The notes beneath the pieces were generated by a model. It searched no databases. It worked only from the letters and a program-made list of their open reading frames with translations, and was not told the origin of the DNA. This document shows, in pieces, positions 1-64,000 of a DNA stretch of 64,000 nucleotides. Position numbers and translations under genes: made by a program. Source of the stretch: an uncultured Candidatus Peribacteria bacterium (GTDB lineage Bacteria > Patescibacteriota > Gracilibacteria > BD1-5 > JAGOOR01); assembly GCA_964544625.1 (NCBI GenBank), contig CAZJBQ010000003.1:2658-66657 (forward strand), read 5' to 3'. Positions within the stretch are counted from its first letter, which is position 1, and every line of letters starts with the position of its first letter.

Positions 1-481
1 GTCCACACTGTTCTGCTGTCGCAAACGGGACGCCCATGAATCATTGTGTATCACCTTCACCTGCTTTTATTTTGTCTATGTAGGTAATAGCTTTATCGAC
101 TGATGCACGTGTTGCTTTTCTCAGTATATCTCCGTTGAGCTCGACAAGAGAAGTAATACGAAAACCGTATGCACCTGTTTCAGTCTGAAATGGTGAGACA
201 TCGAGAATCATTTTTGTATCGAGTTCTGGTATGAGTTCTTTGAGGCTGGCACGGAGACTGCCTGTATCAGGTGTATAGGCCAGGAGATGCTCGTTGGTAT
301 GCATACCAGCATGAAAATCATCATACTCTTCGCTCCTTGGTTCACCGAAGAGATGAAGTGCATAGGTATGGATTTTGAGGGCCTCTGTTGAGTCTATTTC
401 CTTATCGACAGATAGTGTCCCTCCTGTCATGATTTTGTGGTCTTTTTCACTTGAGTGAAGTCCTGCGTTTATGGTTATCAT
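1..481 (-). CDS. luxS: S-ribosylhomocysteine lyase (LuxS); C-terminus runs off the left window edge
   Basis: ORF 41..481 carries HTNEHLLAY, the LuxS HxxEH metal motif. Reading TGA at 41-43 as Gly continues in frame to ...ATAEQCG, which matches the LuxS C-terminal QCG zinc-ligand region. Confidence 0.8.
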
Positions 482-488
482 ATTGTAA

Positions 489-1127
489 TTAATTATTGAT
501 GATGAAATCGAGAATAAAAGGGAGGTGTTTCACGACGCGTTCTCCCGCGTGGAGATTTTGGAAAAAGTTTTCTCCCGCTTCTTCGTCGGCATTATCAGAG
601 ATTATTTTGAGTGCTATGAGCGGTTTTTTATAATGGTGTGCCACCTTTGCCAGAGCGGCTCATTCCATATCGACGAGTTGTCCGCCTCTTGCCTGGAGTG
701 CTTCTCGTGTTTTTCCAGAAGCGACGAATTGATCGCCCGTGACCAGGACTCCGGATTTGAGTTCTGGATGTTCTACCGTGAGGAGATTGAAAAGCGGATA
801 GAGCCGTGACTGTGCTTCGTTATCTCATTCGATAAATCCATCATGTTCGACTGTGTGCTCCACGACCACGACATCACCGAATTCGAGATGTGGTGACAGG
901 CTTCCAGCGAGTCAGACGTTGATGATTGTATCGATAGGATATTGTTCGAGGACTTTTGTCAGTGTCATGGCGGCTGAGACTTTTCAGATGGAGCTCACAG
1001 CAAAGACGAAATTCCCATGTTCGACGATATCTCCTGGTGCGAGTGTTTTTTCGTAGCTCAGATACTTCGTGAGAGGAAGCATCTCTTCAGCCATGGCAGA
1101 GATAATGAGGATTTTTTTGTGTTGCAT
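489..1127 (-). CDS. mtnN: 5'-methylthioadenosine/S-adenosylhomocysteine nucleosidase
   Basis: Minus-strand ATG at 1127 and TAA at 489-491 give 212 aa. Sequence MQHKKILIISAMAEE...SSI[G]KVSAAMT...IINV[G]LAGSL matches the MtnN GIGKV and AGG motifs, with TGA at the conserved Gly positions (e.g. 984-986). The plus-strand ORFs in the track here are antisense. Confidence 0.85.
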
Positions 1128-1173
1128 AGTTTTTTGTTTCAAATTTACAGGGCTTTTTACAGGCTACGTTATT

Positions 1174-1284
1174 GTACTTTTGTTACCAAAAGTACCAAAA
1201 GTATTTAGGGGAACCAAAACTCGCTATGAACTGTATTCAACTTATATCTTTTTTCATCCCGCTCAGACAGTTGTTCCCCTAAAA
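1174..1284. repeat. Structured intergenic repeat, copy A (hairpin GTACTTTTG-TTA-CCAAAAGTAC plus long-range stem TTTAGGGGAAC...GTTCCCCTAAA)
   Basis: About 110 nt between the apt stop and the mtnN start. It shares its core with the copies at 22668-22774 and 26864-26920. Confidence 0.7.
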
Positions 1285-1304
1285 ACCTTTCTCCTTTTAA
1301 TAAT

Positions 1305-1820
1305 CTAAAATTGGATTGCTGAAAAAATTTCGTATTGATGTAATTTTTCTCTTCCTTTGAGTCATTTTAGTTCTATTAATACACCACCAAATACTTCACT
1401 CGCTCCATTGTTTTTCGCGAGACTGAGAGCCGCTCCGAGTGTGCCACCAGTCGCCAGGACATCATCGATAACGAGGACTCTGTGATTCTGGAGTATATCT
1501 TTCCTGATTGCGAGTGTTGCTGAGCTGTATTCGTAACTATAGGATTCTTTTGCGACGAGATCGGGAGGGAGTTTACCATCTTTGCGTATCATGACGAAAG
1601 GGAGATGATATTTTTCGGCTAGCATGCCACCGAGGACAAAACCTCTCGCATCGATTCAAGCGATGGCATCTATATTTTTATCTTGGATAAATACTCTGAA
1701 GCTCTCGAGTATTTCACTACGAGCCTCTACATCGAAGAGGAGAGGTGACATATCACGGAAGAGCACTCCAGGTGCTGGAAAATCAGGATAATTGGTGAGA
1801 AGGTGTGAATAGTCTTTCAT
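1305..1820 (-). CDS. apt: Adenine phosphoribosyltransferase
   Basis: VLVIDDVLATGGTL is the PRPP-binding motif. The N-terminal extension (DAIA[G]IDARGF) and the C-terminal extension (IELK[G]LKGREKL...) each cross an in-frame TGA. ATG at 1820, TAG at 1305-1307, 171 aa. Confidence 0.9.
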
Positions 1821-1845
1821 ATCGGTGTATTGTAGTGAGAATTTT

Positions 1846-3214: not shown

Positions 3215-3244
3215 TTTTTTCTTTGCTTTCCCTATAATTATCTC

Positions 3245-6996: not shown

Positions 6997-7938
6997 TTAA
7001 ATAGTATTAGTTATTTCTTTTAGCTCGGTGATGATAAGGAGTCGGCTAATAGTGGTTCATAGTGGCCAACAAGTCATGAGCGTGAGTTGCTTCATTTCTT
7101 CAGTCCCACCGAGAGATGATACATGTCCTGGCTTTACTACTTTTTTGTCCTTGACCATATAGACGAATTTTTTGTGTTTGAAGTAGACGATAATCTCATC
7201 TCCATTTTCGAGTTCATTGAGTAGGGCAAATACATCATTATAGTTTCCTTTTGCCCACGGGTAGTTCGAGCTATGACCGAATATAAAACTATTTCCTTTT
7301 TCTCCTGGATCAGCAGATCCTGGATATTTTACGATGCCGTTTTCGAGCTCTTTCATAAATATCTTGTGCCATTCAGTTGAGTTGCTCGCATCGTGTTGTT
7401 CGACATTGATGAGAGGGATATTTTTACCTATTTTTGGTATGATGATACGATCTTCGTAGGGGGTGACGTTGACTGAGAGTGTTACACTGGAAACTTCTTG
7501 ATCAAAGTAATCCACCCCGAGAGTTTGTGTCGGAGTATTGCTTTTTTCGAGACGTCGTTTCAGCATTCTCTGTATTTTCATTTGTTTGATTTCCTCTTCA
7601 TCGTTTGGGACACTTGTCACCTCTATTTTTTTGAGACCACCTTCTATGGCCTTTTGTTCGTTCGCGAGTTTTTCAGGAGCTAGGTATGCACCCGCGAAAG
7701 TACTGTATGCTGACCAGTTAGAGATTAAGAGAAGTATGATGAATAATATACTCGTGAGGAGTACAAAATGTATCATTCCACTGAGATTTTTCAGCCATTT
7801 ATGCTTTTTCTTGAGCTGTTTCTCTTCTTTTTTTACCCAATCAAAGACATCATGAGAAGTATCAAATACTTCTTGTACGAGATTTATTGGTTTATTGTTG
7901 TGTTTCTGAGGTTGTAAATCGCTCCATCGGTTCTTCAT
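6997..7938 (-). CDS. Sortase family transpeptidase
   Basis: N-terminal TM anchor, the FGHSS histidine, and LTLMTCWPL[G]TTISRLLI, which is the TLxTC active site with the downstream Arg. The Arg is reached only by reading TGA at 7057-7059 as Gly. TAA at 6997-6999, 313 aa. Confidence 0.85.
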
Positions 7939-15230: not shown

Positions 15231-16277
15231 TTATTCGAACAAGCTGTCGTCGTGTTCGCTGACCCAATTTGTAGTTTTCCCTTTTCCATACCATGGCCAG
15301 AGGAGCACGTCTGTGTGTTCAAAAGTACCTGCTTTGATATCGTTGAGGGGATTCATCGCGAGTTCAAAGTGGAGATGGTAGAGATATTTTTTGTCTGGCA
15401 CAGCTGATCCTCACACGTGTCAGAGCACAGTACCTTGTCATACTCTTCTTCATTCATACATATCCTCAGGTATGCTCTCGAGGTGAGCGTATATAGCGAC
15501 ATGTCCTGAAACTGTTTTGAGATAGACAGTGTTACCACGATAGGTATCGAGATTTTCTTGTTTCTCTATATCTGAATCACCATCATGGAGATGAGCCATT
15601 TCTTGCCAGCTAAAGTCGCGTTTGACGTGGATGATTGTACCGTCTTCGATCGCAGTGACTGGAGTTCATTCGGAGGTATAAAAATCCCAACCATGATGAA
15701 TTCCATCAGTTGAATCTGCCCGAAACGGACGTGGAGAATTTGGGAGGTGTGTAGATTTTGTTGGGAGAGCAACACTTGCTATAGGAAGAGAGTATTTCCT
15801 TTTTCGAGCTGCGAGGACGGTGTCGATATTGTCGAAAAATTGTCGTATCTTCATCGAAGAGAGCTTGTAATCTGTACGGAGTATGCTCCCAGCTTTGAGT
15901 GTATTTTCGAGAGTACTGGTAGATACATCAGAGAGGGTTTCTATTTCAGGCAGATTATTTGCTATAGGGAGTATGTAGTTCTTTTTTTGAAAAGTGACCA
16001 CGGGGAGTGTACATCGTCCTTTTGATTTCCATTGTACGACTGATGATGTGTCTGATGATTTGAGTATGATTCTCTTTTGAGAACAAGGCGAAGTGAGACC
16101 ATCAACATCTCACGAAGAGAGCCCTATGAGTACACCAGATCCTGTATCCAGAGAAGTCACACCAGAATAGAGTATCTCTAGAGGTGGCGTGACATAAGGC
16201 TCAGAATTGGCTTCGGATATGAGAATGCCAGGGAGTAAAAGTGTTATCAATCAGACTGACAAGGAGTGTCGAATCAT
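15231..16277 (-). CDS. M23 family metallopeptidase (348 aa)
   Basis: Signal peptide, then GIHHGWDF (HxxxD) and ...[G]HV[G]GSAVPDKKYLYHLHFEL (the HLH motif). Eight in-frame TGA. TAA at 15231-15233. Confidence 0.85.
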
Positions 16278-16480
16278 ACGATTTTTTGGTGTGTTTTTTC
16301 TACGAACAATTGATAATAGTGTATAAAAAAATTGATCGAATCAAGTTATTTATGATATTTCTCTGCTTGATTATGCTTTTTTCTCTTTTTTGCGATAAAA
16401 AATGATCAGTTGTGTGAAGAGCGTGTGAAGTATGCTTTCTTTTCTCGATGTTTCCTTTATCATCTCCCCACCTTCTTTTT

Positions 16481-20089: not shown

Positions 20090-20192
20090 AAATAAAGGGA
20101 AAGAATTATGAGCAGTATATGCGTAAAACAAAAAGGGGCAATATTTGCATATGAGTTCAGGATAGTGTACTATGAGTGGGTAATTATTTTTT

Positions 20193-23737: not shown

Positions 23738-24190
23738 TTAGATTATTGTGAACTCACCTTGATTGATTGGTAGTTGTGTGAGTTTCTGTACGATTTCAGG
23801 GATATTTGGAATCTGAGGTGTGCATGATGATATGTCTTCAAGTGGCGCCCATCTGTATTCCGAATATTCATCATTCAGAACAATATCGCCCTCAACATGT
23901 ATGGCGAGATAATGGGGGAGTATCATAGCATTGCCATCTTTTTTTCTGAACATTGTGTTATGACTCAATGTCGGAAATATCTTTATCTTGAAATTCTCTC
24001 AGACTTCTTCATCTTTTTCACGTTTCAATCCAGCGAGTATTGATGTATCAGTAGTTTCCATTTTCCCTCCAATAAAGGAAAAAACTCCATCGTAATCTGC
24101 CTCTCATTTTCTCTTGCAGAGGAGGACGCTCTTATGATCCGCTGAGAGGACAACTATTTTCTGGCAGTACTGAAAAAGATACTCATTCAT
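23738..24190 (-). CDS. Nudix hydrolase (150 aa)
   Basis: Nudix box GGKMETTDTSILAGLKREKDEEV[G]. The final conserved Gly is the TGA at 23999-24001. Confidence 0.8.
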
Positions 24191-24224
24191 AGAATGATTG
24201 TACAGATTGAGGCCCTTTTGCAAC

Positions 24225-26958: not shown

Positions 26959-29214
26959 CTAGGTTCTTTGAAATAAATCGTCTATATCCTCCTCTCATTG
27001 ATAGATCCTTGATAATTCTTTATAACTCTCACTGTCACTATTGGTTAAGTCAGAAATATAATCATCTATCAGCGTTTTTATGTCGACACCAGCTGATACA
27101 TAACTTGTAGTTATATCTAACTGTTCTGCCCATTCTTCAAAATTTTCTAAACATTTTTCTGCTATTTTTTCTATTTCTCTTTCTATAGTCCACTCATCAT
27201 AATCTATTTCGTATTCACCATACGGGCCTCTTATTACATCTATAAAATCGCCTAAATATAGATCTTTTTTTCTATAATCCATATCGCTCTGCACATGATA
27301 TAAAATATCATCTCTTACTACTTCATCCAACGAATTATTTTTCAAGTTAAATTTTTCTACAAAAAACCATAAACCATTTAATTCTGATTCATCTAATATT
27401 CTTTGTGGTAGATAATCAACAATAAAATTAAAATCTGTTAATCACAATTCCTTATAGTATTCTGTTATTAAATCTAGGAAATAAACTATTTCATCAATTG
27501 GTTGTGGCGTTGAAAATATTTTCCTTAAGTACATTAGTATTTTTGTTTTAACTCATTCTTCTTCGTAGTATCTACATGAAGATAATAAATAGATTATGTA
27601 GTTCGAGTTTTTATCTGCCAATCATGCATCATTTAATAAACTGAGCTTTATTTGTTTTTCAATATCCTTACTTACAATTTTATTAAAACTTAAGTTACCT
27701 AGTAACTTCAGAGATTTTGTCGTGTTCAATGCTTTAAATATTTTTTCTAGTTTTTTTGTATTTGTATTTAAGTGATTTAAAACGTAGTCGGTTATTGATG
27801 GATTGAATAAAGAATAAATAATTATTTTCTCCGAGTTTTTAGATCTATTTAAAAAAATTTTTATAGCTAATCTTACCATAGAATTAAAATCTTTTTCTGT
27901 ATGTGAATTATTTTGCAATTTTTCATATTCAATTAGTTTTTCATAACTAATCTGTAAATTTTTTTCAGTGATTTCTCATCAATTAAATACTGTTAGATAA
28001 ACTAAACATCGTACATATTCATTAGTTTGACTGCCCAATGAGTTTGCCCAAATATTTTTTGGATTATTAAGCGCATCTAGAACATAATCCCAAAAACCTT
28101 CTTTTTCTTCATATCCAGATGTTATTGATTCAATAATGCGAGGATTATAATTTTTATGCTTTATAATTTCTTTATATCTTTTATCTTTATATATTTCGCT
28201 TACCTGTTTTTCTGTTAATTTTCAAAAGTATATATGATTATAAAGTATTCTTGCTTTCTCTAAGAGGTTTAGATTTTCTACCTTGAGAAGTAATTCATTT
28301 GTTTCAATTCTTGCTTTCTCTATGTAAGGACTATAAGCTTTTCAGTTATTTAGTATGTTTGTTCTGGTAGTTAATATAAATCTCTTCTGAGGGTCATTTT
28401 TAATTCTTTCAATGAAATTGATTATGTGAGAGTCCTTTTTATTTTCTATTGCTTCAAAATAATTACTTCCTAAGAAATCGTCAAAATAAAATATTTGTTT
28501 ATTTTTATTGTAAGCATTTTCAGCCTCACTTATATTTTCTTCAATACTAACAAATTCATACCCATTGCCTGTAAAGAATAAAGATAAATTCTCTGCAAGA
28601 GTTGTTTTCCCTATGCCAGGTTCTCAATAAATTATTAAAACATGCTTTTCTTTTAATATCTTCAATGCTCTTTCGTGATTCTCTGTCAGAATGTATTTAT
28701 TTATTTTTTTTTGTATTCTTTCTATTTCAAACTTGCTTCTTCCAATGATTGCATTATTTACAATCTTGCTAATTGTGCCTGGATTATTCATCCAGAGTTT
28801 ATAATTATTTTCATATATGTCTTGATTTGTATCTAATAAATCGCTCAAGTCCTCTTCTCAAAATACATCATCATCTTGTTTTAGATAAGGATTGAATTTT
28901 TCTTTTATATCTTTTTTTTGTTTTCTAGATAATCATAAAGATGTTATAAAAATGTATCTTCCGGGGTTAAGGGCTTTAACTTTATTTTTTTCTTCTTTTT
29001 CTATTTCACGCATTAGTCACTTGTATCATGTTTTTAGATAATGTTTACATTGAATTATGCACTCTTTTCATTCATCGTAAAAAAATCGCCCGTCAACTCA
29101 TTGGTCTTTTCCTGATTTAAATCTTTCAATTCTTCTGTTTAGTAGTTTTGATATTAGTTGTATTGCCAATGTTTCAAATTCTTTGTCATTTAGTGCCTGA
29201 AAGTTATATTTCAT
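26959..29214 (-). CDS. Mrr-like PD-(D/E)xK nuclease fused to a STAND-type P-loop NTPase (751 aa)
   Basis: Four track fragments share one frame and I translated them line by line with no TAA or TAG. N-terminus has KSGKDQ[G]VDGRFF...IIQCKHY (D...QxK nuclease core). Walker A is [G]EPGIGKTT, Walker B-like is IFYFDDF, then ILTTR, then about 400 aa of helical C-terminal region. 15 in-frame TGA. Very AT-rich. Confidence 0.75.
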
Positions 29215-29278
29215 ATTTTTATCCTTTCTTAAACTATTGCTTTCCATTCTATCCACTATACTATCCTCTGCAATGTTC

Positions 29279-31639
29279 ATGGCAAATAAACACCCACAAT
29301 CCCTGGCTCTTTGACTCGATTTCGCACCTGATTTTGAGAGGATTCGTCGTGAGTACTCGCCGATTGAGATAAATCAAATAGCCAATCCAGAGCATCCGCC
29401 CGTGGGAATTGAGTATGTCGAGTGTGATACGCTCTCGGAACTGGTCGAGTTTCTGAAAAAACAAAAAAATATTCTCGTTCTCACCAAACAGACACCCGTG
29501 ATGGAGAAGTTTTGCAGTGAGAATGAGATAGAAGCACGGATTCATGCGTGGAAACTCTGAGGTCCGTCGTTTGTCCTCGACGGTCAGTGTGTGATTACTG
29601 ATGAGCTGATTTGACCACTCTTGGGCGGAGTCTTCCGACGGAAGAAGCGACCGCAACTAGACTTGCTCGTCCAGATAAAAGCAGGAGATCCTGTGGTGCA
29701 TCTCTTTCATGGTGTGGGGATATTTCAGTGAATCGTGCGCAATACTCTTTCCGGAACTGAGCGTGAATATATTGAGATAGAATACGCGGAGAAGGATAGG
29801 CTCTTTGTGCCAGTCGAGGAGCTTCATCGTGTCTCGAAATTCGTCGGAGAGACGACGCCGACACTCACTCGTCTGGGTTCACCTGCGTGGAAAACTATCC
29901 TCGCAAAAACAAACGAAGAAATCCAACAAATCGCTGAAGAACTTCTCGCGAATCACGCCGCTCGTCGTATGGCTGGTGGTGTGTCGATGATGGATTTTCC
30001 GGAAAAAGAAGAGACATTTCATCTCGCATTTCCACATAAGCACACGCTCGATCAAGAAGAGGCGATTCACGGGATTATGGCCGACATGAATAGTGAAAAA
30101 CCGATGGACAGACTCCTCTCTGGTGATGTCGGATTTGGCAAAACAGAGGTGTCACTGCATGCGGTCTATCGTGCATTTCTCAATGAAAAACAAACTATTT
30201 TTCTCGCACCGCTCGTGGTCCTCGCTTACGAACATTATGAGTCAATTCGTGAACGTCTCAAACCGTTTGGAGTGAATGTCGCGATGATGACGCGCATGAG
30301 TACGACCAAGGAAATTACTACCGTTTTAAAAGGTCTCAAAGATGGCTCTATTCATTGTGTTATTGGGACACACAGACTCCTCTCACCAGATATAAAATTC
30401 AGAAATCTCGGACTTGTTGTCGTCGACGAAGAACATAAATTTGGTGTGGCAGATAAAGAAAAAATCATGCACCTCAAAGCAGGTGTCGATACGCTCGCAC
30501 TCTCAGCAACTCCGATTCCGCGCTCCCTCAATCTCGCACTCTCTGGTGTGAAAAATTTCTCAATATTGTCTACTCCGCCACACGGGAAAAAGCCGATTCA
30601 TACAGCTGTGGCACGCTATGATCAGACCATAGTCAAGCGAGCTATCGAAGAAGAGCTCGCTCGTGGTGGCAAAGTATTTTTCGTTCACAATACCATCAAG
30701 ACACTCCCGATTCTCAAAAAAGAAATCGAATCGCTCGTACCAAAAGCAAAAGTGGTTATCACGAATGGTCAGCTTCCATCGGATGATCTCGAAGACCGTA
30801 TCATGGAATTCAAACTCGGTATGCACAACGTTCTCCTCACGACGACCGTGATAGAAAACGGTATCAACTTCCTCGATACCAACACTATCATCATCGATGA
30901 AGCAGAAGATTTCGGACTCGCACAACTCCACCAACTTCGTGGACGTGTCGGTCGTGGACAGATTCAGGGGATTTGTTATCTCATGTATCGACAACCAGAA
31001 CTGCAGGACGAAGCACGAGAGAGGCTGATGACGATCGCGAACCATACCCATCTCGGTGCAGGATTTGAGATAGCGCTTCGTGATATGGAAATCCGATGAG
31101 TGGGTGATGTTCTCTGAGTTCGACAGTCTGGCAAGACTCGTGATGTTGGCGTGAGTTTCTATCTGAAATTATTGGAACAAAAAATCGAAGAACTTCAGTC
31201 TGGAAAAAAAGAATCAAAAGTGGATACCACGATTGATCTGCCTATCAGCGCCTATATCCCTGACGAGGCGTTTAGTTCTGATATTGAGAAGATTCATTTC
31301 TACCGTGAACTCGAATCTGTCCGTAGTGAAGAAGAGCTCGCAGAAGTTATCGAACCACTGAAGACTCGTATCGATATAAAACAATCAGCCGTCGACCATC
31401 TCTTTCTCCTTATTCGTGCACGACTCCGACTCTCATCACTTGGTGTCCGTCGCGTCTTTATGCAGCTCGGGAAATATACGCTTGAATGGGGAAGTGAAGG
31501 TGAGAAAACGCTCGATGCGATGAAACAGATTATCAAAGACGATACCAAAAAATGTGCAGAAGTCCTCTCAGGCAAAAAAATTGCCTTCTCGAGGAAGGCA
31601 TTTTTGAATCATGGGGAATTTCTCGGGTATTTTCTTTAA
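29279..31639 (+). CDS. mfd: Transcription-repair coupling factor, N-terminally short form (786 aa)
   Basis: GDPVVHLFHGVGIFQ[G]I, EYAEKDRLFVPVEEL, GDVGFGKTEV, VVDEEHKFG, LSATPIPR, GRVGRG, and MEIR[G]VGDVL[G]VRQSGK with TGA at the conserved Gly positions (31097, 31115). Only about 130 aa precede the RNAP-interaction region. Confidence 0.9.
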
Positions 31640-36551: not shown

Positions 36552-39500
36552 TTAGTTGTCATCATCATCGCCACGTCACTGTCACTGTTGACCTTGTCCG
36601 TGTGATTCTGGCACATTATCGCTGTGTTGTATTTGTTCGCCTTGTTGTGGCTGCGCTGGTGTTGTGTTATCTGTTCTGAGGCCTGCTTCCGTTGTGCTGA
36701 GAATGTCAGATATTTTATCATGCACATCAGGTTTTTTCTTAGCTTTCTTTGCTGTTCCGCTTCCTGTATCGAGCTCTGCTACTGATTTGCCTCGTAGATC
36801 TTCTTCTGAAGAAACTACTTTTTCAAATCGTTGCCACATCTTAGTGCGATATCGTATACTGGCCGCAAAACCTTCTGTTGCAGCAATTCTCTGAGCAGTG
36901 GCATTGACGCCTTCCATCTTGATTTTCCAATCTGCGAATATGGCATTGAGCTCAGGACTTGCGCCTGTTTTGGTGAGCGTACGGATGTCAGCCATACCGA
37001 GTATCATCGCTGCGACGTTATAGTACGAACATTTGGTTTCTGTATTAAATTTCGCCTGGTTCATAAGTCGATACACGCCACCAACATTCTTTTCAAAAAT
37101 AGTTTGGCTCATTTTATCTATGTATTTTTTTGCTGTTTCTCCCTTGAATCACATGTTTTTTGCCATGTCTGTACACATGTCAGGGATTTTATCAAAGAAT
37201 CAGCGCATATCGTTGAATATACCATCTCCTTTGGTACCATCTCCTTTGGTAAATGCGTCTTCTAGGTTGGCATCGATATAAGCATCCCAGTCAATCCAGA
37301 ACATCGGATAACCATTATCAAATCCTTTTCTAAATCGGAAATGATCTCCTTCGTAGTAAGCTCATCATCGTATATTTGAGTGCGCAGCACTATTTTGCAT
37401 ATCATAGAGCCTATCGTAGTAGGATTTGATAGCCGGTGATTTTTTTTGTAGTTGTTCGTAATGCTCTCTTTTTTCGGCAGGGAGATCCTTCATCATCTCA
37501 TTAAACAATGCAGGATCATTGATCATGAGATTGAGCATCGGGTCGCGCATACCCGTCATTTTGTGCATGATTTCTTTGCCATGTTTTCTCCAGAGAGCTT
37601 CAAAGCGTTTTCTCCATGTACTTGTTTTACTGTCTTCTCAGCGCCCACCTGCTCTCTCGTCTATGAGACTCTGGAGTTCTTTTCCGACTGCTGGACTAAT
37701 AGTGTAAGCAAAAGCGACCCCAGTTTCTCGAAATATATTTCCGAGGTTACGGTTCTGCATAAAGACAAACATTGGTACTTTTGCATTGCCTTGAAATGCT
37801 TCACGAAGACTCTCTTGAGTATCAGGCAACATCTGCTGTTCACGAGAAGCGAAGAGCATCGCTGCATATGGCATAGTTGATACTTCAGTTGGATATCATT
37901 CTCTGAGCCAAGGCTCAATAGCTCCTCCGAGAGTTTCAGTGAGTTTTGAGTGAAGAGCTGACCCCATCATCCAGTCGAGTTTGCTCTCCATGGTGAGTCG
38001 TTCTGCGAGATTACCGACACCACCATCTTTGAGGCTCTCATGTCATTTTTTCATGTATTTCTGGAAACGTCGTCCGAGGTTTTTGAGCATCGGATGTTGG
38101 AATTTATCAAAGAGTTCTCTCGTCATCTGTATTTCACTGAGCATATTACCTTCCTTATCCACTGGATAAGGTTCATGGGGCATGTGATGTGGGAATTGCT
38201 TTTCATCGACATTGGTGACGACGTGTCGGACGTTGTTGTAGAAATGCCATTGTCCACGTGAGTCTTTTTTTGAACCATCATCATATGGATAAAGATGGCT
38301 GAAGTTGTGAAACGAGGCAAACATGGCTGCCATGAATTTCGGATCAGGGAAGTGATAGGATGACCATTTTTTGATCAGACGGACACGATGGTAACTACCC
38401 ATGCCATCGATTTTGTTGACGAGTTCGTCGAGGTAGCTCTGGAAACTCCCGTTTCCATCCGCAACCATGATTGATGGCCACTCTGCCCAGTTGAGGATCC
38501 CTGCAATAGGTCATTTTCCGCTCTGAAGTTTTTCCATCGCGAGTGCCGCAGTGAGCTTACCAGCGAAGGCGTGGTCTTTGTGGTGTTGTTCTTCCCAGGC
38601 TTTGTATGGTGCTTTCCAGAGGTCACCGTGGAGAATAGTTCCCCAACTATGTGCATGGAGAAAGACATTGAGCCAACTCATACCGCCACCTTTATATTCG
38701 ACTTCTTGTTGATATGTGTCTCCTTTTTCTGGTGGTTTTTCGAGTTCACAATTATTCGACTGGAGATACGCCCAGAGCCATGATAGTTGCATAGTCATAC
38801 TCCCCGTACCTTTGAACCCAGCTCGTTGTGTTATCTTTCCAGTTTTTTTATCAAATTTTTCACTCTTGTATGTTCCCATACGGAGCGTGACTTCTTCACC
38901 ATGGATACTCTCGATATAGAGGTCTTGTTTTTCGCCCACTCGTACGATAGACATACTCTGAAATACGCCTGTATTGGTATCTACTTTTCAGAATTCTAAA
39001 CCTTTTTTTCCTTCCTGAATGGTGATATCTTTATATTTTTTATGTCGTCATTCTCTGTTATGTTTTTCACTTCCCATCATGACTTTGAACTGGTCGACGC
39101 CGAATTTTTTACCTCGGGTAGGAACACGATAGGTTTCTTTTCTTATTTCTTTTTGTTGTTTGAGGATATTGAGGAAATCTCCAAATGAATACGACTTGAT
39201 AGATCGTTCTCCTGATCCCCACCCATCCCAGAGAGTCACCTCTCATCCGTCTCCTGTTGCGGGATCAGAGTCGGTGATAGATTTAATCTGAAATGTATTA
39301 AAACTCTCATCATTGCCCACAAGAGCAATAATCATGCCTTCATGGATTTTTCTCTCTTCTGGTTTTTCTGCTTCGAGTCATTTTGACTTATCGTAGAGGA
39401 GTTCGTCGACTTCTTTGTCGAGCACTTCTCGAGAGGGTATATTGGTACTACCAAATTTTTCTCTCAACACTTCTTTTACTTCGTCATCGGTTCTCATTTT

Positions 39501-41054
39501 TGAGCCGTCTTTGACGACTTCTTTTTCGAGTTCAGAGCCCTCTATGAAATCAATCGTTCCATTGTCACTACAGCCAGAGAGGTAATGATAGAGTTCTGGC
39601 CCAGAATAAAATAATGGCATCCCAGCTGGTGAAACGGGATTTTTGTTATTTCCGAGGAATCTGAGTTTCGCGACACCTTCTTCTTCGAGAGATTCAGGGA
39701 GGAGGTGATCAACAGCATAATATCCAACCATCGATATATTCCCATCTTTATCTTTTTGTCGCCAGACCATGACATTTCCTTCTTTGAATTTATCGAGATT
39801 GGTGATTTTATTTCCGAGTTTTGCGGTGATTTCAGCCAAGAAACCACTCTGTGTCATGACTTTCTCAGAGTGGAGCCCGTGTGTTCGGAGAAATGCATTT
39901 TTGTAATCGATACCTACCCCGCGTAATGAGCCAGGTTTTCCTTGCCAGAAATTTCTCTGTTGTTCTATTTTTCGAGCTGATCCAAATCGACCCAAGAGAC
40001 GCACTTGTGTTTCGAACGGGAGATTGCGTGTGACGATATTTGTATCGGTGAGTCCTGTGAGGTATTCGTTTTTGGCTGTATTTTCTCTGTCCTCACGGAC
40101 GTATCTGTCCATCTCGGCGTCACCAGTGGCTATATCGTTCGTGAGAGGAGCGTGTTTTGCTAGGATATCTTTTGCGGCTTTTGGATCGACTGATTCCACG
40201 GCATCGTACGTGACGAGTGGGAGATATTGTCGTGAGAGGAATCCCAGTATTCTCTTTTTATTTTCTTTGGAAATGAGAGTATTTTCGTCGGAGAAAAATT
40301 TCTCAAAATCAGCGCTGAGATTGCCTTCTGAACCATTTGCTTGGATACGTCTTATGGCATCTTGCATGCTTTCACCGTCCTCAAGTTTAAATCCTCACAT
40401 GATACTCCGCCATGCGTCTTGTATACCACGACTGTTGGGATTATTCGGAGGGAGTTTCGTAATCTCAGTATTGAGCGTTTCGAAATCTATATCATCGAGC
40501 GTTTTGGCTTTGAGCTCAGAAACGAGTGCCTGATCGAGACGTTTTTTCCGATAACTCGGTATCTCGAGAAATGAACGAATAGTTTTTGTGCTTTCTTTTT
40601 TGAGTACTTTTCTGAGAGTTTTTTTATGATCATCGGCTAGCCCCTCGTACTCGTCTGCCACCACTTCGATAGCGCCTTCTATCATCTCATCTTTTGCTGT
40701 GTCTTTGAGCTTCTGACTATGCTCTATATGGTACATGAGTTGATTTTCAAAACAGCCTGTTTTTGATAAAAATGCATCAATATCAGTATCCGAGTCGCCT
40801 GAGAGGCCCATTTTTCCTCTATTCTCTGGTGAGAGTGTTTTGAGTCTTTTTTTGAATTCTTCCTTGAGCTTATCTCGTGAGAGCGTGCTCTGGTGGAATT
40901 GTTTGATGAAGTCTTTGAATGCTGGATCTTTGATTGATTCTTCGCAAAATTGTCTGGTTTTCCGTACTTGTTCACCCACTATATCATGCTCTTGGCCTTG
41001 CTGTTCGAGGTTTTCTAGATTCTCTCCTGGTCATGTAGTGCTCCCAGGTAACAT
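36552..41054 (-). CDS. Giant hypothetical protein (1500 aa)
   Basis: Eight minus-strand track ORFs (40395.., 39378.., 39048.., 38511.., 38043.., 37638.., 37365.., 36582..) all share one frame. I translated the junctions and they contain only TGA. ATG at 41054 is preceded by an in-frame TAA. TAA at 36552-36554. Confidence 0.7.
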
Positions 41055-45575: not shown

Positions 45576-46328
45576 TTAGAGTTGCATAATTTCGGTAGGG
45601 TCTATCTTGAATTGGAGCATATTTGCTGAATCTCTTCAGCCATCTCATCATTTTCTTTGAACTGTTATTCTTCAAATGTTTATGCTTCATCGAGGTGATA
45701 TTTTAATCTCACCATTACCATAGTAGTTCATTACTTCTCAAATTGGTTTTAGAACCCATTCATACAGTGATGTTTTTCTTATAACAAGCATCCATTCAGC
45801 ACAAAAGTCACCACGACCACGAATTATATCGCTTACAATCATGATTTTATTTTGTTTAAAAAAATTTAGTATGGTTGTCTGTTCTTGTGAGGACATTTCA
45901 TGTAAAAACATTCGTCTCTTATCTTTTGTTCATTTTTTGTAAGGTTTCTTTTCTCCACAAAAATAGGCAAGTAGCTCATAAACATCTTCCGGTATGCCCC
46001 ACATCTCTTTGTAGTTTTTGAGCCATCTTTTATCAATTTGGTTAAATCAAGAATCATTAGATACAAGTTTTACGGATATGTTCTGTAAATCTATTGCATC
46101 TTGAAGTTTTATGATAATTTTTACTTGCACCTGAACATCTGTTTTATTTCCCATTGGCACTTTAACCGCTTTTACATATTCTATTTTTTTTAAATCATAT
46201 CCCATGGTTGTGAGCCATTTTTGTGCAATTTCATTATGCTGCCAATCATTGAATATCTCAATAATGTCTGCTTCATTCTGGAATCATTGTTTTGCTGTCT
46301 GAGATCAGCGTTGTATTGGGTCGAGCAT
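45576..46328 (-). CDS. Putative type II restriction endonuclease (250 aa)
   Basis: Translated line by line with no TAA or TAG, about 10 in-frame TGA. It overlaps the 3' end of the adjacent C5-MTase gene. ...MGNKTDVQVQVKI...ISVKLVS...ITVQRK[GG]D[GG]RDSANMLQFKI loosely recalls MspI/HpaII-type enzymes, from memory only. Confidence 0.55.
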
Positions 46329-47304
46329 AAGAATTTTGATGAGATATAAAAGTGGCAAGAGATTTACCGAGTGCTTCAATTACATTTACCGACATAGCAT
46401 TACCCGCTTGACCGAGTAAGTCTTGGTCAGGAATTGTTCATTGAGTCTTGATTGCCTTGTTATAATCAATTCATTGTAATAATAGTGCCTCTAATCCTGA
46501 AATATCTCGCAATTTACCATCTCGAACATAGAGAAGCCCATGTCTGCCCGTGCGTAATGTTGGAGAAAAATCCTTATAGAAACGAATGTCACTTTGTCGT
46601 GTATCAATTATGTATCATGTTTTTTTCAGTAGATCATTTATTGTTATAGATCATTTATTGTATTTATTTTTTAAATAATGTTCTAATGTATTTAACCTGC
46701 TTTCGCTTAATACATATTTTGATGATTTTTCGATGAGATATTTTTCTAATCCTACTTTATGTTTTTTTTCTGGGAAACTTAACTTTGTCTGAAAAGGTCA
46801 TAAATCTTTTCTTATTCATAAAAAGTAAACTCTATCTCTTGATTGGGGGAGACCGTAATCTATTGTATTTAAAACTTCCCATTTAACGTAGTATCCTGCA
46901 TCATTAAGCAATTCAACAATACTTTTTATAGTTTTCCCATTTTCGTGATTTACGAGTCATTTTACATTTTCTAAAATAAAATACTTTATTTTTCTTTCTT
47001 TAAGTATTTTGGTAATTCAAAAAATAATTTGTCATCTTGGATCTTCCATTCATTTTCTTTGCCCCATTACGGAGAAAGTCTGACAAGGAAATCAGGCTAT
47101 CAATATATCAAAATGAGGCAATTCTGAGCTATTAATTTTCATTAGATCTCAGAAATTTCTTTCTTCATGTCAATAAAAAGTACGATAAGTTCATTCCGCT
47201 TTTTTATTTATTTCTGAGAAAGCTACACACTGAAATCAAGCTCGTTCAAGACCTAAACGACCACATCAAATCCCTGCACAGAAATCCATAAACGTGTAAA
47301 TCAT
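46234..47304 (-). CDS. DNA (cytosine-5)-methyltransferase
   Basis: Motif I FCAGI[G]CG, motif IV [G]FPCQTFS, motif VI ENVK[G]L, motif VIII QSRDRVYF, motif X GNAMSVNV. 356 aa with 19 in-frame TGA. No track ORF of 60 aa or more lies in this gene's reading frame. Confidence 0.85.
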
Positions 47305-48590: not shown

Positions 48591-48691
48591 GACCGGATTA
48601 TACTCCGCGTCTTATTATTTCAAAGTGCCTCTGAGCATTGCGATGGTGAGAAGAATTGAGAGTGTATTTATCGCTGGTTGAAAGCCTTAAA

Positions 48692-49627: not shown

Positions 49628-49770
49628 AGGAAAAATAATAAAATAAGAACAGATTTATTCTATTGAGAACGTATTTTTTACAAGAATTGAAATGAGCCGA
49701 AAACCTATATTGAATATTATTTTGAAAACAACGGTTTTATTTTTATCTTTTTTCTTATAATTCAAATCCT

Positions 49771-50217
49771 ATGACTAAACTCGCTATTACTTCTGTCTAT
49801 GCTAATCCGATTCACCCGGGGCATATTGATTCATTTGAACTCTCAAAATCTGTCGCTGGAGCTGATGAGCTCTGGGTTATCGTCAACAATGACCACCAGG
49901 CTCGCCTCAAACGCGGTGTCGAGAGTTTCCAAGATGAGACATACCGTTGTCGCGTTGTGAGTGCTATCCGTGCTGTCGATAGAGTATTTCTCAGTATCGA
50001 CCAAGATAGAACTGTGTGTGAGAGTCTTCGCGCCCTCATCCTCGAGGCAAATGCGAGCGGTAAATATAGCGAAATTATTTTCACAAAAGGCGGAGATCGA
50101 TTTGCTGGAGAAATCCCAGAATCAGTCGTTTGCAATGAATTTGGTGTCAAAATCGTCGATGGACTTGGAGAAAAAACACATAATAGTTCTGACTACGCTA
50201 TCAAAAAGCAGAGTTAA
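49771..50217 (+). CDS. Cytidylyltransferase-like nucleotidyltransferase (148 aa)
   Basis: ANPIHPGHID is the HxGH motif, on a small Rossmann-like protein. Confidence 0.7.
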   Translation: MTKLAITSVYANPIHPGHIDSFELSKSVAGADELWVIVNNDHQARLKRGVESFQDETYRCRVVSAIRAVDRVFLSIDQDRTVCESLRALILEANASGKYSEIIFTKGGDRFAGEIPESVVCNEFGVKIVDGLGEKTHNSSDYAIKKQS

Positions 50218-50253
50218 TTATTGTATTTAGTGTGCTTTGAGTAGAATAACTCC

Positions 50254-51648: not shown

Positions 51649-54015
51649 ATGCGAGAACTCTTTGACAAGATAAGTGCCATATTTGACCATCTCTCGACCC
51701 AATCACGTATTTGGGTTGTTCTGAGTTGTATTGGTTTCTGTCTTTTGTTTATTATTGTTGTTCTCGCGAAATATACACTCGTCGATCATGAGTTCTATAA
51801 AAACCTTGCTGACAGACAACAGCTCCGAAAAATAGAGCTATCAGTCAATAGAGGCACAATTTACAGTACTCTTGATCCTCATCGTATCAATGTAGCGAGT
51901 GATTTTTCCCCGACGTCGATATTGGCGACGACTTCTGTTGCCAAAGATCTCAAAATCGACCCTTCTGCACCATGTAATCTGACTCTTCTTGAGCCATTTC
52001 TGCTTGATATAGCGTATCAGCACCTCTGTGTGGGACGTTCCCAGGTGAGCTGTTTTGATAATATCATGAAGTTCACTAATACATTTGTGACACCAGATAA
52101 TTTCTCATTTACCAAAGAGCAAATACTCGGATTTATCGCTCCCACAGTGCATGAGATGACCAACCGTGTCCACAAAACTCGTATACTCCTCGTCGATAAT
52201 CTCAGCCCACAAGAGCTCAATACGGTTCTCGGTCTCGGCAATCCCGGTATTTCTGTTATCGAGTCAGCGGTCTATATCAATCCCGATAAATTTGACCGAT
52301 CCCGCGGTATCGAAGCGCTCCTCAATATCCTCCGTATCGACCCTTCTGTCCTCGAAGATGCTCTCGTTCCACGTAAAAACCGTAACGTCGATATCGTCGA
52401 AAAACTCGCGAGCGATGTCTCTCTGCAGGTCGTGAATCGTATCAATAGTGAGCTCGCTCTCGCGAAACAGCAACCACTCAAGGACCAAGAAGAGTATCTC
52501 AAAAAGAATACCATCTACAAATGCCTCAAGCTCAACGATCATCCTGTGCGACAATATCCAGAAGGTTCTGTCGCGAGTCAGGTAACAGGTTTTGTTGATC
52601 GAGAAGATGTGGGCAAGCTCGGTATCGAGTGATATTTTCAGGACATGCTCGCTGGTAAATCAGGTCGAAAAGATGAGCGTCGTGATAGTCTCGGACGGCC
52701 TATATTTGACGAAGACGCAGAGCAAGAAGTAAAGTGAGTCGATCTCTATCTCACCCTCGATATCAATGTCCAAAAAGCCGTCATGGATGCCCTCGAAAAT
52801 GGTGTTCGTTTCGCAGGAGCTAACACGGCATCCGCGATTGTGATGGATCCAAAAACAGGAGCAATTCGTGCTATGGCGACGTATCCATCGTTTGATCCTG
52901 AGCGTCCTGGTAATGTCGATAAGATTGTCCGTTTTTTCCCCGCGGATCATCCTAATCCAATTCAATTCCTTCTCGGAAAAACACTCTTTGTGGAGTCGCC
53001 ATCCGGGACGGTTAAAAAGATTTTTGAAAATCGACTCGTTACGGTTGTAGAGCTCCATGATGAGGATCAGATGCTCGAAGCATTGGCTATACCTGAGGCA
53101 GTCTTTTATGTCTATGAAAATAATGTTTGACTCGGAGCGCACCAAAATATGGCCCTCACATCACCCTATGAACCAGGAAGTATTTTCAAATGACTCACGG
53201 CAGCTATTGGTCTCGATGCTGGTGAGATAGAGCCAGATATGATTTATGAAGACAGAGGAAGGATCAAAATCGATGAATTCGAAATCAATAACCTCGATAA
53301 TAATAAATGTCAGTGATGGCATACGTTTCGTAATGCTCTGAACTTCAGTTGTAATGTGGGCATGATCAATATCGTACAACGTGTCGGCAAAGCGCTTTTT
53401 TATGAATATCTCAAGAAATTTTGACTCGGAGATATCACTGGTCTCACGCTTGATGGCGAGCATACTGGTTCTCTCGAAGCTGTCGAAAAATGGCCGAAAG
53501 CTAAATTATTTACTATGACATTCGGACAAGGTATCCAGGTCAATCTCGTCCAAATGGCAGCAGCATATTCAGTTTTTGCCAACGGAGGAGTGTACATGCA
53601 ACCCTATATAGTTGGACGACGTGTCTATCCTGATGGTGATAGTGTCGATACCGAACCTATCCCAGTGCGCCGAGTCATCAGTCAGGCTGCCGCTCAAAAA
53701 GCGACTGCTATGCTCACAGAATCAACCAAACAAGGTTTCGCGAAAGCGGGTGCTGTTCCTGGGTATAGTCTCGCTGGTAAAACTGGTACCTCTCAGATAT
53801 CGAGTAGTCGAGGAGGATACGAAAAAGGTGAAAATGGTCGTACCAATACATCTTATGCTGGTTTTGGTCCTTCCAATGATCCAAAATTTGTCATCATTGT
53901 CCGTTTTGATCGTCCTCGCAATACCCAATATGCTGAGTTTTCTGCTGCGAAAACATTCAAAGAAATTGCGGCCTTTATGCTCCAGTATTACGGAGTACCA
54001 CCAAATAATAAATAA
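51649..54015 (+). CDS. Class B penicillin-binding protein (PBP2/FtsI-type transpeptidase)
   Basis: N-terminal TM anchor, then SIFK (SxxK), SCN (SxN) and KTGT. Three track fragments share one frame and join through TGA. 788 aa. Confidence 0.9.
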
Positions 54016-54148: not shown

Positions 54149-54224
54149 TGGTGGGAACGCTGGGAATTGAACCCAGGACCATCACCTTAAAAGGGTGCTG
54201 CTCTACCAATTGAGCTACGTTCCC
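54149..54224 (-). tRNA. tRNA-Lys(UUU): tRNA-Lys (anticodon UUU), CCA encoded
   Basis: GGGAACG TA GCTC AATTGGTA GAGC A GCACC CTTTTAA GGTGA TGGTC CTGGG TTCAATT CCCAG CGTTCCC A CCA folds as a cloverleaf with U33, anticodon TTT and A37. Confidence 0.85.
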
Positions 54225-60461: not shown

Positions 60462-60695
60462 TTATCGTTTTACATCGAGCTTTATATCGTCCGTCATTTT
60501 CGTCCCATTGAGAAAAATTTCAATATCATTTCTATTTTTGCTGATATTCATCTTTGTCTTGAGTTGTTCTATGAATACTCGCGGTGGTTCTTGTTTGAGT
60601 ATTTGTTTTTCTTGTGTCTCTGCGAAGTATTTACCACAGAGAAAAGCTGCTATGAGAAGTACTGTGACCGCTAGAGATACTCTTAGTTTTTTCAT
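60462..60695 (-). CDS. Small membrane-anchored protein (77 aa)
   Basis: [21 protein letters not shown] looks like a signal peptide or anchor. Its ATG overlaps the last 13 nt of folD. Confidence 0.5.
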
Positions 60696-61525
60696 TGGAG
60701 AGAATGAGCGAGGAGTACATTTGAGAGCAGCATGGCTATAGTCATAGGCCCTACACCACCAGGTACTGGTGTTATATCAGCTATTTCTGCGATTGACTCT
60801 GTGTCACAATCACCGAAAAGTTTTCGTCCTTCGTTATTTTCTTCTACATTGATACCGACATCAATCACGAGAGATCATGGTGCTATCATATCAGCTGTTA
60901 TGAGATGTTTTTTGCCCACCGCTGAGATCACGATATCCGCATTTTTTGTATGGACCGAGAGTTCTTTTGTCCGGCTATGACATATGGTGACCGTTGCGCC
61001 AGCGTGGAGTAGGAGCATCGCGAGAGGTTTCCCAACGATAGTGCTTTTACCGATGACAACGACATTTTTCCTTTCGAGGGTTCTGTGTTTTTTTATTATT
61101 TCTATAATCCCTTTCGGAGTTCCTGGTATGAGTCCAGATTCGTCTCCGCTGTAGAGTTTGGCTATGTTTGTTGCAGAGAATCCATCGACATCTTTGTCTG
61201 GATGGATAGCGTTAAATATTTTTTGGGCATCGATATGGACGGGGAGAGGGGATTGCACGAGTATTCCATCAACTCCTGCATCGTTGTTGAGCTCGTGAAT
61301 TGTTTTGAGGAGTTCTTGCTCAGATATTTGTTCCGAGAGTCCCAAGAGTATTCATTTGATGCCGACACTTTCACAGGTTTTGATTTTATTTTTTACGTAT
61401 ACCTCACTTGCACTGTTATTTCCGACTATGATAATCGTGAGTAATGGCTGTGTTTTTTTCTCTCATACTTGTTTTCGTATTTCATCTGTTATAGCCTCAG
61501 TGATGTCTCGTGTATTGAGTATCAT
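60683..61525 (-). CDS. folD: Bifunctional methylene-THF dehydrogenase/methenyl-THF cyclohydrolase
   Basis: [46 protein letters not shown] and [10 protein letters not shown]. Five in-frame TGA. 280 aa. Confidence 0.9.
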
Positions 61526-61526
61526 G

Positions 61527-61814
61527 TTATTGGAGTAATTGAGCGAGAGAGGGCACTCATAATCCTATGAGTACATCGATGATGAGGAGGAGTATGAGTG
61601 GTGCGAGATCGAGCATACCTATAGTTGTCGGGAGAGTTTTCCTGACAAAATCATAGAGAGGTCGCGTGATACTATTGAGTGGCCCTATGACTATATGGAG
61701 GCCAAAGAGTGTGAGCCATCCAAGTATGACGTCGATGATGATGCACCAATAAATAGTACGGAGAAAAAATGATATTCCCGCGAGGAGATAGAGTCAGACA
61801 AGAGAAAGAATCAT
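61527..61814 (-). CDS. YggT (YlmG/Ycf19) family membrane protein
   Basis: ITRPLYDFVRKTLPTTIGMLDLAPLILLLIIDVL matches the YggT signature. 95 aa with two in-frame TGA. No track ORF. Confidence 0.7.
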
Positions 61815-61861
61815 AGCCAATGAAATCCCACCATTACGAAGTATATTTCTGAACTGTTCGA

Positions 61862-62176
61862 TTAAGCGAGATGTTTGCTGAGGAGTCCGACGAGACTTTC
61901 TTTATCAGAGAGCCCGACCGTCTTGTCGACGAGTTGGCCGTCTTTGAAGATGAGGATAGTTGGGATACTCATCACGCCGAATTGTTGTGCGATATCACCA
62001 GAAGCATCGACATCGAGCTTGGTAATATTTGCTTTGCCCTCATATTCATGAGCGAGCTCTTCGACGATAGGAGCGATACGTTGGCAAGGGCCACACCAGT
62101 CAGCATACATGTCGACGAGAGTTACGCCAGAGGCGATAGTAGATGTGAAATCAGCAGAAGTAAGTACGCGTGTCAT
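61862..62176 (-). CDS. trxA: Thioredoxin
   Basis: WCGPC active site in an intact 104-aa ORF. Confidence 0.95.
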   Translation of the reverse strand: MTRVLTSADFTSTIASGVTLVDMYADWCGPCQRIAPIVEELAHEYEGKANITKLDVDASGDIAQQFGVMSIPTILIFKDGQLVDKTVGLSDKESLVGLLSKHLA

Positions 62177-62349
62177 AAAAGAAAAATAATGAAATAAATC
62201 TATATTTCAGTATAGGTGTTTTTTTCTCATTGCAAATTTTTAGCACGTAATTTGTTTAGGTGCTAGTTTTAATAATAAAATATTTGTTTGACATAATACT
62301 TTTATTACATAAAATAATTTTGTTTTAAATTAATTTATTATAAAAATTT

Positions 62350-62577
62350 ATGACAAGTACACTTCCAGAATCACATCCAGAAATCTATAGCCATGCTGGT
62401 GCTCATTGAGGTATTCTCAAGCATGTTCCTGAGCATGTTTACCGTGCAATGTGAGAGTATGCACCTACCGCTAAAAAAGAAGATGGTACTTTTAAGTTAG
62501 TCAATCCTCGTTGAGACGGTGTTGCTGGCCCAGATATTTCATCACCTCCGCCAAACGCTGACCAGTATGCATCCTAA
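62350..62577 (+). CDS. Hypothetical small protein (75 aa)
   Basis: ATG at 62350 and TAA at 62575-62577, three in-frame TGA. Sits between the trxA upstream region and pyrG. Confidence 0.35.
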
Positions 62578-62627
62578 TTTTTCTTTGATTTTTTAGAAAA
62601 ATCGATACTCTCTGTCAATAACACTGT

Positions 62628-64000
62628 ATGAAAATAATTTTTGTGACGGGGGGTATCATTTCTGGTTTAGGGAAAGGTGTGACGGCCTCATCGATAGGTC
62701 GTCTTTTAAAATCTTCTGGATACAGTGTCACGATGATGAAGATTGACCCATATCTTCAGGTCGATGCGGGGACGATGTCACCCTATGAACATGGCGAGGT
62801 ATTCGTCACTGAAGACGGTGCCGAGACTGATCTCGATATCGGTAACTATGAGAGATTTGTTGATATAGCTCTCGATAAAGGCTCGAATCCAACAACAGGT
62901 AAAATCTATCTCTCTGTGATTGAAAAAGAACGAAGAGGAGATTATCTCGGGAAAACTGTGCAGGTTATCCCACACATCTCTGATGAGATCAAGAGTCGTA
63001 TCCTCGCTCAGGCGGCAAAAGCCGATATATGTATCGTCGAAGTAGGAGGTCTCGTCGGTGATGCTGAGAGCCCTGTTTTTATCGAATCAATCCGTCAAAT
63101 CCGCAAAGATATTGGTCGAGAAAATGTCTGTTATGTTCATGTCGTTCCACTGCTGTACATCGATGTCTCTGGAGAATTCAAAACCAAGGCCATCCAGCTC
63201 TCGAGTAGACAACTCCGTGAGTCAGGCATCCAGGCAGATATCCTCGTTACTCGATGTCCAAAATCGATGCCAGAGGAACTCCGTGCGAAAATATCAATGT
63301 TTACTGATGTTGAAGAAAAAAACATCATAGAAGCAGTGGATGCACGAACTATTTATGAAGTGCCACTCTTATTCCAGAAACAGGGCCTCAAGGAAATCAT
63401 CGAAGATACACTTCACCTCGAGCATCGAAAGACAGACCTGAGTGAATGGGAAAAATTAGTCGACAATATCGTTTCTCCAACAAAAGAAATCCATATCGCA
63501 ATTGTCGGTAAATATGCAGAACTCGAAGACGCATACATGAGTGTCCGTGAGGCTCTCGTCCATGCTGGTGCGAAATATGCGACCAAGGTAAGGCGTCACT
63601 GGATCAACGCAGAAGATATCGAAGAAAATCCAGAACTCCTCGCAGAGCTCCGAAAAAATGGTCAACTCGATGGTATGATTGTGCCAGGCGGGTTTGGTTC
63701 ACGTGGTATCGAGGGCAAAGTCACAGCTATCAAATATGCTCGCGAAAACAATATTCCGTTCCTCGGTATCTGTCTCGGACTCCAATTATCCGTGGTAGAA
63801 TTTGCTCGTAACGTCTGTGGCGTTGCGGATGCGACATCGACAGAGTTTGAAAAACCAGGAACACCATTTATCGATTATCTCCCAGACCAAAACGATACTA
63901 TCAATAAAGGGGGGACACTTCGTCTGGGAACACAAGAAGCACAGGTTATCGAAGGCTCTCTTATTCACAAACTCTATGGTTCGACGACTATTAGCGATCG
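62628..64000 (+). CDS. pyrG: CTP synthase; 3' end runs off the right window edge
   Basis: MKIIFVTGGIISGLGKGVTASSIGRLLK...KIDPYLQVDAGTMSPYEHGEVFVTEDGAETDLDIGNYERF...TVQVIPHI is the canonical PyrG N-terminus. The frame is open to the window end. Confidence 0.9.
   Translation, partial: MKIIFVTGGIISGLGKGVTASSIGRLLKSSGYSVTMMKIDPYLQVDAGTMSPYEHGEVFVTEDGAETDLDIGNYERFVDIALDKGSNPTTGKIYLSVIEKERRGDYLGKTVQVIPHISDEIKSRILAQAAKADICIVEVGGLVGDAESPVFIESIRQIRKDIGRENVCYVHVVPLLYIDVSGEFKTKAIQLSSRQLRESGIQADILVTRCPKSMPEELRAKISMFTDVEEKNIIEAVDARTIYEVPLLFQKQGLKEIIEDTLHLEHRKTDLSEWEKLVDNIVSPTKEIHIAIVGKYAELEDAYMSVREALVHAGAKYATKVRRHWINAEDIEENPELLAELRKNGQLDGMIVPGGFGSRGIEGKVTAIKYARENNIPFLGICLGLQLSVVEFARNVCGVADATSTEFEKPGTPFIDYLPDQNDTINKGGTLRLGTQEAQVIEGSLIHKLYGSTTISD

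Follow-up and report, generated by a model that had tools for sequence, protein, structure and literature searches.

The 64-kb stretch of contig CAZJBQ010000003.1 analyzed here (hereafter the window, meaning the whole stretch) raises the question of what the codon UGA means in this bacterium, where TGA repeatedly occurs within the reading frames of recognizable genes: termination, tryptophan (Trp), glycine (Gly), or more than one of these. A preliminary description of this DNA had proposed that UGA is read as Gly, according to NCBI translation table 25. Our results support that proposal, and with a probability of roughly 0.96 the window belongs to a Gracilibacteria-type bacterium within the Candidate Phyla Radiation (CPR)/Patescibacteria that uses table 25, with UGA as an ordinary Gly codon and only UAA and UAG as terminators. 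In this window UGA is a sense codon with the meaning Gly, read through without termination and unused as a stop, and the remaining codons are standard. The reassignment of UGA to Gly is an already known phenomenon, table 25 being the published code of the Gracilibacteria group (PMC13293708, PMC8629427, PMC11393006), as the preliminary description had also stated; the code itself therefore gains nothing new from this locus.

Genes were curated from Pfam matches and orthologs, resulting in 46 genes (16,912 codons), 45 of them complete. Across these we counted 161 in-frame TGA codons, with at least one in 38 of the 46 genes, and TAA and TAG interrupt none of the frames. Of the 45 complete genes, 33 terminate with TAA and 12 with TAG, in line with the earlier claim for every gene rebuilt. 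The claim that most genes are interrupted by TGA in the standard code holds equally, although the further statement that every standard-code annotation of the window would be wrong was overstated: it is right for 38 genes, and the other eight, including GlmM, CorA and the part of PyrG lying in the window, are free of TGA and are called correctly. The window has a guanine-cytosine (GC) content of 40.9%, and its trinucleotide counts are 1,642 TGA, 717 TAA and 611 TAG. When coverage was measured with greedily chosen, non-overlapping open reading frames (ORFs) of at least 80 amino acids (aa), 66% of the window was covered in code 11 (median length 139 aa) against 90% with TGA as a sense codon (median 227 aa), and the control reassignments reached less, namely 77% for TAG and 78% for TAA as sense. 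Furthermore, single Pfam domains cross many TGA codons with the frame unchanged, the DNA_methylase domain extending from residue 3 to 282 of its protein through 16 of them.

ORF length was not a usable guide for the choice of genes, hence the curation by Pfam matches and orthologs. As TAA and TAG occur seldom in any frame, code 25 generates long, TGA-rich spurious ORFs, either antisense to true genes or fused upstream of them; the stop-to-stop ORFs of 100 aa or more add up to a 2.7-fold coverage of the window. Neither ORF length nor a self-trained codon-usage score served to select genes, both yielding long antisense or fused ORFs. Pfam matches lying on the other strand or in the downstream portion led us to reject the ORFs at 48638-50230 (plus strand) and 26959-30141 (minus strand), and likewise the 5' part of the ORF at 16007-18352 (plus strand), where positions 16007-16590 are a spurious upstream extension. 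A further long spurious ORF in code 25 lies at 19943-20647 (minus strand).

The recovery of intact ORFs shows that TGA is read, but does not tell which amino acid it specifies, as table 4, in which UGA encodes Trp as in Mycoplasmatales and several insect endosymbionts, reaches the same 90% coverage and is inseparable from table 25 by ORF structure. For the identity of the residue, X was placed at each TGA, the proteins were aligned to PDB homologs from standard-code organisms, and the best homolog per protein was counted. Gly occupied 26 of the 40 aligned positions, compared with a Gly background of about 7%, and Trp occupied none (0/40); the tabulation of the residue facing each TGA, which the preliminary description had proposed, thus gives a predominance of Gly and not the Trp that would have spoken against it. 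The agreement extends to individual motifs, and the six coordinates cited earlier all fall exactly on in-frame TGA codons in the correct strand and gene. In the MTA/SAH nucleosidase MtnN (489..1142, minus strand; Pfam PNP_UDP_1), the four TGAs (660, 825, 912 and 984) all correspond to Gly of PDB 4kn5 (4/4), including those of the motifs GIGK, SGxAG and EMEG, the codon at 984-986 lying in frame within SSI-X-KV. The single aligned TGA of the sortase (6997..7938, minus strand; Pfam Sortase), at 7057-7059, ends the motif TLMTCWPL-X, which matches TLVTCTPY-G of PDB 8gr6 (1/1). The Nudix hydrolase (23738..24223, minus strand; Pfam NUDIX) carries TGAs at 23999 and 24104, the former (23999-24001) being the Nudix-box Gly, where REKDEEV-X pairs with REIREEL-G of NudI (PDB 6dt3), and the other facing Ala (Gly 1/2). 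Mfd/TRCF (29279..31639, plus strand) contains six in-frame TGAs, and its Pfam domains CarD_TRCF_RID, DEAD, Helicase_C and TRCF appear in the correct order; both aligned TGAs (31097-31099 and 31115-31117) lie in EIR-X-VGDVL-X, which pairs with EIRGAGNVLG in the Mfd structures of M. tuberculosis, M. smegmatis and T. thermophilus (2/2).

Other proteins contribute both conserved and variable positions. FolD (60683..61525, minus strand), with TGAs at 60692, 60875, 61352 and 61463, was compared with four FolD structures; the site MIAP-X-SLVIDVG, corresponding to MxxGxxVIDVG, is Gly in all four (4/4), and the remaining three TGAs fall in variable columns (Gly 1/4). The class B penicillin-binding protein (51649..54015, plus strand; Pfam Transpeptidase and PBP_dimer) has six in-frame TGAs, and its alignment with M. 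tuberculosis PbpB (PDB 6kgh) places two of five on conserved Gly residues (KF-G-LG, and the G before xxLTLD), the others (D, I and Y) being in variable columns. The largest contributions come from a restriction-modification pair: a C5 cytosine methyltransferase similar to M.HhaI (46234..47304, minus strand; 19 in-frame TGAs; GC 32%), with Gly at 7 of 12 aligned TGAs (the others being E, D, N, C and N), and a restriction endonuclease about 60% identical to R.HinP1I (45576..46379, minus strand; 10 in-frame TGAs; GC 33%; Pfam R-HINP1I, 2.2e-94), with Gly at 8 of 10 and Asn at two in PDB 1ynm. The Gly residues of M.HhaI that face TGA include those of FxGxG and of GFPCQ, the latter as earlier described.

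An independent measure was obtained by filling the TGA positions with ten alternatives and summing the Pfam bit scores over five families (986 residues, 29 TGA sites). Gly gave the highest sum (483.2 bits), followed by Ser (444.2), Ala (443.0), Lys (427.6), Asp (423.7), Cys (423.0), the neutral X (422.1), Arg (417.4) and Leu (395.9), with Trp last (389.8). Gly scored highest in four of the five families, among them NUDIX. Replacing Gly by Trp lowered the DNA_methylase score from 222.7 to 180.8 bits; in the Peptidase_M23 domain of a gene at 15231..16277 (minus strand; 7 in-frame TGAs), Gly gave 51.8 bits, X 38.1 and Trp 30.6. Counting TGA as Gly changes the Gly content of the curated genes from 6.1% to 7.1%, and counting it as Trp would take the Trp content from 1.0% to 2.0%. 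Selenocysteine was rejected as the meaning of TGA, given the 161 sites, their alignment to Gly and a Cys score 60 bits under that of Gly.

Codon exchange among relatives addresses the same point at the nucleotide level. Related loci were retrieved by a genome scan using Mfd, resulting in 14 genomes with 76-96% Mfd identity. In 176 pairs, a TGA of the window faced a Gly codon in 81, TGA in 72, Ser in 7, Ala in 7, Lys in 5 and other residues in 4, and never Trp; in the reciprocal comparison (239 pairs), TGAs of the relatives faced Gly codons in 123, TGA in 72 and Trp in one. Considered by site, the 50 distinct TGA positions of the window included 14 facing TGA only, 28 facing Gly (24 exclusively), 8 facing other residues and none facing Trp. 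TGG, in turn, pairs with Trp in 281 of 304 ortholog pairs and, in that tally, with TGA in none. Taken together, the absence of Trp from the structural alignments, its lowest Pfam score among the ten residues tried, 93 bits less than that of Gly, and the near absence of pairs between TGA and TGG (0/176 and 1/239) make table 4 extremely improbable here, and the exchange of TGA with GGN in the 14 relatives adds to the structural and Pfam results in favor of the Gly assignment originally proposed. Each of the other 61 sense codons pairs with its standard amino acid in the ortholog alignments. A second reassignment of CGA and CGG to Trp was also considered and rejected, as no Trp signal appeared in these alignments: CGA corresponds to Arg in 83% of 305 aligned pairs and CGG in 85% of 60 pairs, so this additional change is absent here.

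The same comparisons bear on whether the in-frame TGAs could be true stops, i.e., marks of pseudogenes, of sequencing or assembly errors, or of genes that are actually split. Public gene callers did fragment such genes: on identical contigs from other samples, genes had been called in the standard code and were broken as a result, for example FolD into pieces of 156 and 58 aa and CTP synthase into pieces of 335 and 180 aa. Against this, in-frame TGA occurs 161 times and in-frame TAA or TAG not at all; four independent assemblies of the same species carry these TGAs unchanged, including all four of FolD; and 72 ortholog pairs in other species retain TGA at the site. Conservation is also equal on either side, identity to orthologs being 0.60 over the 30 aa before a TGA and 0.62 over the 30 aa after it, single Pfam domains run across many TGAs, and the genes affected include essential ones (ArgRS, RNase J, FolD, the penicillin-binding protein and Mfd). 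Furthermore, a copy of a 1500-aa gene from another sample (locus L005), 96% identical to that of the window, reads GGA at 3 of 9 sites where the window has TGA; such a TGA/GGA polymorphism within a species involves one base only and should be synonymous in code 25. The shared TGAs, the equal flanking conservation and this polymorphism exclude assembly error and pseudogenization, and the probability left to true stops is next to nil; the possibility of assembly artefacts, which the preliminary description had itself raised, is thereby removed. In the same species, one locus (L001, 1710-3299) has CTP synthase in two calls of 335 and 180 aa and another (L002, 4082-5677) has it as an intact protein of 531 aa, which implies a TGA/GGN polymorphism within the species past the right end of the window.

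A subtler alternative is that UGA has a dual role, encoding Gly for the most part while still ending certain genes or acting as a stop in particular contexts, through incomplete reassignment or context-dependent readthrough. Several TGAs close to C-termini lie beyond the reach of homology and would accommodate this idea, namely those at 60692 in FolD, at 36576 and 36582 in the 1500-aa protein, and at 46246-46273 in the tail of the methyltransferase. Conversely, in 69 pairs of orthologous gene ends TGA was never the codon opposite the stop of the window; this codon was TAA or TAG in 54 pairs and a sense codon in 15, and each complete gene has a TAA or TAG placed consistently with its homologs. 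Moreover, published code-25 genomes are described in PMC13293708, PMC8629427 and the gTranslate preprint as lacking release factor 2 (RF2). On this evidence we regard a dual role as very unlikely, and full reassignment of UGA to Gly is retained.

As for the mechanism, the same three sources report, after Campbell 2013 and Rinke 2013, that UGA is decoded in code-25 organisms by a tRNA-Gly with anticodon UCA, and that this tRNA retains Gly acceptor-stem identity elements. By analogy with this published biology, a dedicated tRNA-Gly(UCA) would decode UGA here as well, and it would be charged by glycyl-tRNA synthetase (GlyRS) through the acceptor-stem elements G1:C72, C2:G71, G3:C70 and U73. RF2 would have been lost, in which case nothing would compete for UGA. 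No PCRF or RF-1 domain was found by Pfam among the scanned ORFs of the window, although 64 kb are not informative on the whole genome. The only RNA gene identified in the window was a tRNA-Lys(UUU) (54149..54224, minus strand), detected by both ARAGORN and Rfam, and the Rfam scan of the window returned nothing else.

Four observations weigh against the assignment of table 25. First, in distant homologs about one third of the TGA positions face a residue other than Gly (Asn, Ser, Asp, Glu, Lys or another); these positions occupy variable columns, as any codon would be expected to do. Second, in the Pribosyltran family Cys scored 1.7 bits above Gly. Third, no tRNA(UCA) was found in the window, searched with ARAGORN, or in about 250 kb of related DNA from 19 loci. 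Fourth, 8 of the 14 related records are titled Candidatus Peribacteria, a group not reported to use code 25, the others being titled Candidatus Gracilibacteria (5) or simply 'bacterium' (1). This last point concerns taxonomy. All 14 relatives use TGA as Gly, including the Peribacteria-named L007, L009, L012, L013, L014, L016 and L019, and the Peribacteria label is therefore most likely an artefact of mapping GTDB names to NCBI names. For this part of the tree it has been documented that NCBI labels are unreliable and disagree with GTDB, where the class JAEDAM01 comprises the recoded orders BD1-5 and Absconditabacterales. Candidatus Peribacteria (Peregrinibacteria) corresponds to the class that GTDB now names Gracilibacteria, formerly Peregrinibacteria, which is reported to use table 11, the standard code. 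The 64-kb window contained neither an rRNA nor a ribosomal-protein marker for placement. Were the Peribacteria names to reflect true phylogeny, which we consider unlikely, this lineage would represent a recoded clade lying outside JAEDAM01 (BD1-5 + SR1), which would alter both the distribution of code 25 and the single origin inferred for it.

The use of UGA is uneven along the window. TGA represents 13.5% of all Gly codons, 10.6% of those in core genes and 50.6% of those in three low-GC defence genes, and its share falls as gene GC rises (Spearman -0.50, p = 5e-4). One of these genes (26959..29247, minus strand) encodes a protein with an nSTAND3 NTPase domain (Pfam, 1.2e-46) and an Mrr_cat domain, and contains 15 in-frame TGAs, including the first Gly of the Walker A motif at 28624-28626, where the P-loop reads Y-X-EPGIGKTT. 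The combination of a predicted Mrr_cat nuclease domain and an nSTAND3 NTPase in one protein is an architecture of defence type. With a GC content of 26.5%, this gene forms a sharp island (25-27% versus approximately 41%), TGA accounts for 44% of its Gly codons, and no ortholog was found in the related loci having common flanking genes. The second island, at 45576-47304 (31-33% GC), is constituted by the restriction endonuclease and the C5 methyltransferase described above, in which TGA represents 53-56% of the Gly codons of the pair. The reference enzymes of this pair, R.HinP1I and M.HhaI, are both specific for GCGC. In a standard-code viral homolog of R.HinP1I (locus L020), GGN occupies 9 of the 10 TGA sites, and the presence of GGN at corresponding positions in standard-code homologs suggests that the pair was either recoded after its acquisition or obtained from a low-GC code-25 donor. 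UGA-encoded Gly is even more abundant in the two mobile defence islands than in the core genome, a finding that touches on the debated idea of recoding as a barrier to gene exchange. Codon usage is also strikingly one-sided for Leu: CTC accounts for 947 of the 1,623 Leu codons (58%) in the 46 curated genes, despite a GC content of 41%.

Several other genes of the window display particular traits. The Mfd protein is 786 aa long, compared with approximately 1,150 aa in E. coli, and its first recognized domain, CarD_TRCF_RID, begins at about residue 135, so that the N-terminal UvrB-homology module is seemingly missing. The 1500-aa protein mentioned above (36552..41054, minus strand; 16 in-frame TGAs) has no Pfam match and is found in the relatives at 34-47% identity, versus 85-95% for the neighboring Mfd, which indicates that it is evolving fast; the next two genes, at 41098-42009 and 42072-43034, are also without a family. 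Three large cysteine-rich proteins are encoded on the plus strand at 54343-56685, 16592-18352 and 3245-4891. The first two have signal-peptide-like N-termini and the third has none; seven DUF4215 repeats and a DUF7507 domain were recognized in the protein at 54343-56685, and no significant family in the other two.

In practical terms, these results constitute an annotation warning, as 38 of the 46 genes studied here come out in pieces if table 11 is used for gene calling; since genes are fragmented in this manner, table 25 is required for annotation, completeness estimates and homology searches in this lineage. The window represents a clean, internally controlled example of a known code.

With regard to known systems, the window shares with table 25, the Candidate Division SR1 and Gracilibacteria code, the decoding of UGA as Gly, the use of UAA and UAG as sole stops and the standard meaning of all other codons. 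As in other table-25 organisms, coding density is low when code 11 is applied, relatives are titled Gracilibacteria, and the GC content of 41% falls inside the published range of 0.21-0.53 (PMC8629427). In the code no difference from table 25 was observed; what differs is that several related records bear the NCBI name Peribacteria. A variant is known in Absconditabacteria, where CGA and CGG have been reassigned to Trp in addition to UGA to Gly, and CGG to Trp also occurs in some Gracilibacteria (Shulgina and Eddy 2021, PMC8629427); the window has the reassignment of UGA in common with the Absconditabacteria variant, but not that of CGA and CGG, both of which encode Arg here. Finally, the window resembles organisms using table 4 (Mycoplasmatales, Hodgkinia, Zinderia, Nasuia and some Eggerthellaceae) in that UGA is a sense codon whose read-through restores ORF lengths, and differs from them in the amino acid that UGA specifies, which is Trp in those organisms and Gly in the present one.

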